From positions 1 to 46,977 of the forward strand of contig CAYWCO010000001.1 in NCBI GenBank assembly GCA_964456815.1: a stretch of 46,977 nucleotides of DNA. Reading direction: 5' to 3'. The stretch's first letter is position 1. Each line of letters starts with the position of its first letter. Positions 31,005 to 31,249 of this stretch are shown piece after piece. The notes beneath the pieces are model-generated. The model did no database searches, was not told the origin of the DNA, and worked only from the letters and a program-made list of their open reading frames with translations. The stretch is from an uncultured Dehalococcoidales bacterium. GTDB lineage: Bacteria; Chloroflexota; Dehalococcoidia; Dehalococcoidales; BS750m-G39. The translations under genes and the position numbers were made by a program.

Positions 31005-31076
31005 CTACTTGATATCTTCCAGGGGCCTCTTAAACGTATCAATGGCGCTAGGATACGGTAATGTTTCACCTTTCAT
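31005..31076 (-). CDS. 23-codon mini-ORF or relic carrying the PSAID(P/T)FKRPLEDIK tail
   Basis: MKGETLPYPSAIDTFKRPLEDIK*. The last 48 nt match 2201..2248 with 8 differences, 6 of them at third codon positions. The RBS is weak. Confidence 0.35.
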   Translation of the reverse strand: MKGETLPYPSAIDTFKRPLEDIK

Positions 31077-31132
31077 TGCGGTCGGCCCTACATTCTTTAT
31101 TTTCGACTTATGCAAGTCGTCGCTTAGCTTTG

Positions 31133-31207
31133 TGGAGCGGGAGACGAGATTCGAACTCGCGACCCTCTGCTTGGGAAGCAGATGCTCTACCACTGAGCTA
31201 CTCCCGC
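31133..31207 (-). tRNA. tRNA-Gly (anticodon CCC), CCA encoded
   Basis: Hand fold: GCGGGAG/CTCCCGC acceptor, GCTC/GAGC D stem, TCTGC-TTCCCAA-GCAGA anticodon arm, GCGAG-TTCGAAT-CTCGT T arm. Confidence 0.92.
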
Positions 31208-31220
31208 TTAAATCACAATT

Positions 31221-31249
31221 ATTCTAGTCCAAAAATCCCCGGCTGTAAA
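31221..31249 (-). promoter_or_regulatory. Promoter of tRNA-Gly
   Basis: Minus strand reads TTTACA (31249-31244), 17 nt, TAGAAT (31226-31221). The tRNA 5' end is 13 nt downstream of the -10. Confidence 0.6.

Follow-up and report, generated by a model that had tools for sequence, protein, structure and literature searches.

A C-terminal tail reading frame beside a tRNA-Gly gene in a Dehalococcoidales genome is most probably a remnant of a small-protein/trxB operon copy

The 46,977-nt stretch of DNA analyzed here (the window), from an uncultured Dehalococcoidales bacterium, encodes the same C-terminal peptide tail twice, once at the end of an intact gene for an 82-aa Cys-rich small protein (locus 1), and once in a 23-codon open reading frame (MKGETLPYPSAIDTFKRPLEDIK) that lies between a tRNA-Gly(CCC) gene and the gene for a flavoprotein (locus 2). 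All features of both loci are on the minus strand, and their coordinates are collected in Table 1. An initial annotation had found that the differences between the two copies are concentrated at third codon positions, and had argued from this that the tail has been under coding constraint at both loci. Locus 2 raises the question of whether such a short frame is a mini-gene in its own right or a piece of something larger. The answer proposed here, which is held with considerable confidence, is that the tail at locus 2 is a non-functional remnant of a copy of the small-protein/trxB operon.

Positions 31005-31052 align without gaps to 2201-2248 with eight mismatches in 48 nt (83% identity), as had been reported. 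The similarity of the two regions is far beyond chance (BLAST E 4.5e-9; E 2.7e-6 against the whole 1.14-Mb assembly). Its third-position excess is stronger than was originally calculated: seven of the eight differences, not six, fall at third codon positions, and the binomial probability of seven or more is 17/6561 (0.0026) in place of the earlier ∼0.02. The replacement of TAA by TAG had been recognized correctly, while six rather than five of the differences are synonymous. The sole amino-acid change is indeed Pro to Thr, through one first-position difference (CCA to ACG), and 14 of the 15 tail residues are kept.

Table 1. Features of locus 1, locus 2 and their surroundings in the window.
Feature	Coordinates	Strand	Evidence or remark
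trxB (thioredoxin reductase), intact	1254-2174	-	Pfam Pyr_redox_2, E 1e-51
82-aa Cys-rich small-protein gene, intact (locus 1)	2201-2449	-	Shine-Dalgarno -10.6 kcal/mol
Relic B, trxB codons 31-61 only, 94 nt	29246-29339	-	93% identical to 1991-2084 and to G002 trxB
FAD_binding_2 flavoprotein gene, 494 aa, soluble	29406-30890	-	Pfam PF00890, E 7e-61
Relic A, ∼90 nt	30970-31059	-	Last 17 codons, stop and downstream spacer; 5′ part missing
23-codon ORF	31005-31076	-	Chance frame, as read here: the open frame of the relic, lengthened as far as an ATG upstream
tRNA-Gly(CCC)	31133-31207	-	ARAGORN; Rfam 73.9 bits
Promoter-like TTTACA-17-TAGAAT, upstream of tRNA-Gly	31221-31249	-	Consensus scan, 10/12

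A functional micropeptide would be one way to account for this pattern: translation of the 23-codon ORF would free the C-terminal motif for docking, so that it could act on the flavoprotein or compete with the full-length proteins. An open frame that begins with ATG and retains nearly the whole tail, 114 nt upstream of the flavoprotein gene (a distance that had been given correctly), is what such a reading would start from, although the evidence assembled below makes it very improbable.

The homology at locus 2 is not confined to the reading frame. A third copy of the 82-aa gene is present in the assembly, full-length, on contig C15 (8968-9219, plus strand), and ends ...RPYPSAIDPFKRPLEDIK. Positions 30996-31059 of the window match C15:9165-9228 at 61 of 64 bases (E 4.8e-17), including the stop codon and nine of nine bases past it, and locus 2 resembles this paralogue more closely than it does locus 1 (40/48). 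In G002, a genome of the same genus, the orthologue of locus 1 (G002:C3:18887-18967) matches locus 2 at 88% over 83 nt; here the post-stop spacer is identical at 24 of 25 bases and the coding part at 42 of 48, and the non-coding part is therefore kept at least as well as the coding part. A further match, 52 of 55 bases, is to the metagenome contig L051, whose operon is of the locus-1 type and whose tail reads PYPSAID. These three matches together define a conserved block of ∼90 nt that is composed of a gene end and its non-coding trailer (relic A). Its parent is a paralogue of the 82-aa gene, of which residues ∼64-82 only are matched; residues 1-63 of the family have no match anywhere upstream of relic A. 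That the homology runs on unchanged into non-coding DNA, whereas the start codon of the 23-codon ORF lies outside the conserved stretch, counts against a micropeptide.

The origin of the third-position bias can be traced by aligning the 48 nt of locus 2 with eight intact homologues (locus 1, the C15 copy, L051, L052 and genes in L002-L005). At seven of the eight positions that distinguish it from locus 1, locus 2 has the same state as intact homologues (the C15 paralogue, L051 and G002), which argues that the synonymous differences arose between functional full-length genes. The sole base private to locus 2 is the first-position C-to-A that turns Pro into Thr, a non-synonymous change that, being single, carries no statistical weight. 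The proline concerned, Pro73, is invariant in all 62 aligned homologues (alignment A1) and in 120 of 120 homologues among the matches listed, and locus 2 has Asp-Thr where the family has its C-terminal Asp-Pro (D72, P73). On this alignment, the one substitution assignable to the fragment breaks the DPF core of the motif, which again speaks against a micropeptide. The nearest intact copy differs from locus 2 at three bases only, so that relaxed constraint rests on one substitution. As far as these comparisons go, the third-position bias is not evidence of selection on the 23-codon ORF; the coding constraint that had been proposed holds for the tail in the full-length genes and not for the short frame at locus 2.

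An internal control is provided by a second fragment (relic B), located just downstream of the flavoprotein gene, which corresponds to a stretch of trxB and matches the trxB of L051 at 92% over 102 nt. Five of its seven differences are at third codon positions, and comparison with four orthologues revealed no unique internal substitutions. Covering 31 internal codons of a 306-aa enzyme, relic B cannot be functional, and because it nevertheless shows the same substitution bias, such a bias cannot be taken as the sign of a live ORF, for the neighbouring micropeptide candidate as for relic B itself. The two relics are 1.66 kb apart, flank the flavoprotein gene and have the order and orientation of their intact counterparts at locus 1. 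No pieces other than relics A and B were recovered when both intergenic regions were searched by blastx against the G002 operon genes (grx, Cpn10, FeS_assembly_P, and trx) and the neighbours of the C15 copy.

The 23-codon ORF had been located correctly, and its reading frame is intact. Its first six codons (31059-31076), with the ATG, fall outside the homologous stretch, and a search for a functional translation start or Shine-Dalgarno sequence of its own found none. When the 20 nt before the ATG are paired with a generic anti-Shine-Dalgarno sequence, the ORF scores -3.0 kcal/mol, the median (48th percentile) of 3000 random sites in the window, whereas most real genes in the window score -7 to -13 kcal/mol and the small-protein gene, trx, the flavoprotein gene, the SBP gene, LivK, and AOR score -10.6 to -12.8. 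The N-terminal domain of the family (C-x6-C-x2-C-x10-C and YRGRHY) is present neither in the ORF nor in any frame upstream of it. Some points weigh on the other side, against a remnant: the frame has remained open, with an ATG start and 14 of the 15 tail residues; translation without a Shine-Dalgarno sequence is possible; and the fragment stands in front of a flavoprotein gene, in keeping with the genuine association of the full-length family with flavoenzymes. A decaying relic had been named in the initial annotation as the outcome that would overturn its own proposal, and it is this outcome to which the spacer homology, the truncation, the absent Shine-Dalgarno sequence and the lost proline lead.

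The full-length family deserves description in its own right. It comprises at least 226 homologous clusters of full-length proteins of ∼76-98 aa, all annotated as 'hypothetical', has no match in Pfam or NCBIfam, and was found in 23 of 41 related genomes in one to three copies each. Its invariant residues are M6, C8, F10, C15, C18, Y21-Y26 (YRGRHY), L28, C29, F30, Y34, R35, D72, and P73. The PSA[IV]DPF tail is, as had been supposed, a real conserved peptide motif, with D and P invariant in the 62 aligned homologues. AlphaFold2, run on the 82-aa protein with the 62-sequence alignment, gave a mean pLDDT of 45.9. The search for further tails that had been suggested earlier, carried out with a degenerate DNA pattern, detected ten in 29 other genomes of the family, and all ten end full-length genes; an orphan tail is unique to this genome among the 30, which is a further point against the micropeptide.

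The intact gene and trxB (95% protein identity to that of G002) are separated at locus 1 by a 26-nt spacer (2175-2200), and the statement that the tail-encoding ORF precedes an FAD-dependent oxidoreductase gene at both loci is borne out, with trxB at locus 1 and the flavoprotein gene at locus 2. It had been suggested to check whether the tail always precedes flavoenzymes; for the full-length genes, a flavoenzyme neighbour is usual and not universal, with a flavoenzyme gene no more than two genes away at 15 of 19 loci in relatives. The neighbours are of four kinds, namely Pyr_redox_2 (TrxB), a CoA-disulfide-reductase-like Pyr_redox_2 that sits behind a small FeS protein, FAD_binding_4 (GlcD-like), and FAD_binding_5 (CoxM-like, accompanied by CoxG), and the association spans at least four gene contexts, compared with ∼20 flavoenzyme genes among roughly 1150 (∼2%) in the present genome (G000). 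This association speaks for the micropeptide; since the loci lack independence and a single genome supplied the background, it is a lead rather than a test. The small proteins of the family may bind metal and act as partners of flavoenzymes, with the C-terminal motif serving for docking.

Several other observations concern the family and its operon. In G002 (L027, G002:C3, 425-1410) and in the metagenome contigs L052-L055, genes for glutaredoxin, Cpn10, and FeS_assembly_P (DUF59) lie between the small-protein gene and trxB; L051, like the present genome, has a 26-nt spacer and no more at this place, and the rest of the bin, which is 88.6% complete, yielded none of the three genes. These comparisons show a presence/absence polymorphism within the conserved operon, whose stretch from the small gene to trxB thus varies in the genus. 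Genes of the family often lie downstream of a NifU_N gene. In L014 (G017:C1:1624-1892) the small-protein gene is split, with residues 1-46 in one frame and residues 33-82 in another stretch with an internal TAG, possibly a pseudogene or a sequencing frameshift. Long variants of ∼150-165 aa have the same four-Cys head, with a conserved ...RFMLLGGG / FFMLIGGG C-terminal domain that replaces the PSA[IV]DPF tail; they were seen at L017 (G015:C19), L020 (G028:C29), G001:C4:4688-4834, G009:C74, G014:C17, G002:C5, and G006:C102, that at L017 lying between a 350-aa ORF and a PALP (cysteine-synthase-like) gene.

A cis-acting element, in which the tail DNA (TTGATnnnTTnnAGnGGCCnCTnnAAnnnATCAA, partly palindromic) or the conserved spacer would serve as an operator or RNA structure controlling the flavoenzyme gene at both loci, could explain why both copies lie upstream of flavoenzyme genes. 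It draws on the weak self-complementarity of the tail DNA (24/34) and on the near-identity of the post-stop spacer between locus 2 and G002, yet it too appears highly unlikely. That spacer is entirely missing at locus 1. The predicted RNA fold is no better than that of shuffled sequences at locus 2 (z = 0.16) or C15 (z = -0.03), and only locus 1 reaches -2.1; Rfam returns the tRNA and no other family; and no promoter- or terminator-like site is predicted in 30891-31132. The tails of homologues vary at synonymous sites, keeping the peptide and not the palindrome. An RNA hairpin or operator in the tail was rejected on these grounds.

Slightly less credit still is given to a micropeptide born from the remnant itself, which would be translated without a Shine-Dalgarno sequence, for instance by read-through from tRNA-Gly, and would modulate the flavoprotein or titrate the partner of the small proteins. 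The least probable reading of all is an assembly or binning artefact, a chimeric contig in which unrelated DNA was joined to short stretches of the small-protein/trxB operon. In its favour, the genome is a metagenome bin of 135 contigs (3.3% contamination), and assemblers can be misled by repeated segments. Against it, the relics, at 83-95% identity, are diverged copies and not exact repeats; each is enclosed by unique sequence, and intact genes follow on either side; and two public contigs from different pipelines, JGI 3300025824 and ENA ERZ27245787, which may derive from the same reads, are 100% identical to the window over 6.9 kb spanning both relics.

Locus 2 lies in a variable region. The tRNA-Gly gene lies just upstream of the ORF as had been described, with a gap to the ATG of 56 nt and not 57, and the promoter-like TTTACA-17-TAGAAT noted upstream of it was found again at 31249-31221 as a consensus match only. 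Synteny with G002:C8 and G001 ends at, or no more than 8 nt from, the tRNA-Gly 3′ end. Beyond it, positions 18000-31131 of the window have essentially only the two relics and a ∼100-nt stretch near 19050-19160 in common with genomes of the same genus; the tRNA-Gly/flavoprotein locus is absent from G001, G002, G003, G005, and G013, and the other contigs that carry it are all 100% identical. Elsewhere in the window, the tRNA-Arg gene next to it is similar to tRNA-Gly, and any other tRNA-Gly fragments are at most 13 nt long. Ten large ORFs in the 15.7-27.4 kb interval were compared with Pfam; they encode ABC transporters, AOR, and a CoA-transferase, and no integrase is among them. A classical att-bounded tRNA island was rejected for want of a tRNA-Gly repeat and of an integrase among the ORFs scanned; on present sequence comparisons, what follows tRNA-Gly is a variable region and not a classical island. 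A perfect 6-bp hairpin (31104-31119; CGACTT-GCAT-AAGTCG on the minus strand) is located 14 nt after the tRNA-Gly 3′ end, with no U-run after it on either strand. On the far side of relic B, the leader of a peptide-ABC operon (29060-29206, minus strand) follows TTGACA-17-TAATAT; with a tandem pair of AGTTGCAACT and a number of TTGCAA/ATTGCA repeats, it resembles an operator array.

The flavoprotein is flavocytochrome-c/vinyl-phenol-reductase-like, with matches to the NCBIfam models for VprA and flavocytochrome c that remain below their cut-offs, and its gene has a strong Shine-Dalgarno sequence (GGGAGG) and a GC content of 45-50%, compared with 52-57% in the flanks. The genus yielded no orthologue; among 40 relatives the closest match, from another family, is 45% identical, and no close relative was found in the genome or metagenome contig collections. 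The gene was probably acquired. Neither a small-protein gene nor a short tail ORF was found near the more distant homologues of the flavoprotein, a result that also tells against a micropeptide dedicated to it. In G028, which belongs to another family of the order, 13 matches to the flavoprotein suggest a lineage-specific expansion of soluble 'ene'-reductases.

The reading of the tail as a remnant accommodates these features in the following way. A copy of the small-protein/trxB operon, with relic A descending from a lost paralogue or from a piece imported from a close relative, would have been broken up by rearrangement in the variable DNA right after tRNA-Gly, leaving ∼90 nt and ∼94 nt on either side of the flavoprotein gene, which would have been inserted, or would have replaced something, between them. 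The third-position excess would go back to a time when the forerunners of both sequences still belonged to intact genes under selection. The remnants are young and have almost no private substitutions, and their differences from locus 1 would therefore still display the purifying selection that acted on their parents. That the 23-codon frame is open would be due solely to the young age of the fragment and to the chance presence of an in-frame ATG six codons upstream. The fragment would now simply ride along in the spacer or 5′ leader between the tRNA-Gly and flavoprotein genes.

Comparison with known systems is consistent with this scheme. In Dehalococcoides genomes, regions of high plasticity are bounded by tRNA genes (PMC2764846). 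Like the remnants found in those regions, locus 2 is partly homologous to an intact gene elsewhere, lacks the 5′ part and the translation signals, and is situated directly after a tRNA gene, at a synteny break and beside a foreign-looking neighbour gene. Unlike them, it is accompanied by no integrase among the ten ORFs and no tRNA 3′ repeat, and its two remnants, which come from adjacent operon genes, flank one intact gene. With the 76-98-aa Cys-rich family of Dehalococcoidia/Chloroflexota the fragment shares the encoded C-terminal PYPSAID-FKRPLEDIK and the downstream spacer, and it differs from that family in having no N-terminal domain (M6, C8, F10, C15, C18, YRGRHY, C29) and in having Thr for Pro73. 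It recalls leader peptides and uORFs in being a minimal ORF within an enzyme gene's leader. It is set apart from them by the lack of a ribosome-binding site or attenuator-like structure (the fold z of 0.16 given above) and, among flavoprotein homologues of at most 45% identity, of a similar ORF near the gene, as well as by a sequence for which descent from the 3′ end of a larger gene accounts.

An orphan tail of this kind is in itself an ordinary finding of little weight. The case illustrates clearly how two copies can owe a third-position bias to their intact parent genes, and how such a bias can be misread as selection on a short ORF. For the organism, the relics would date a recent rearrangement beside tRNA-Gly that brought in or stranded the flavoprotein gene. 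The more interesting object, and the one worth studying, is the full-length small-protein family.
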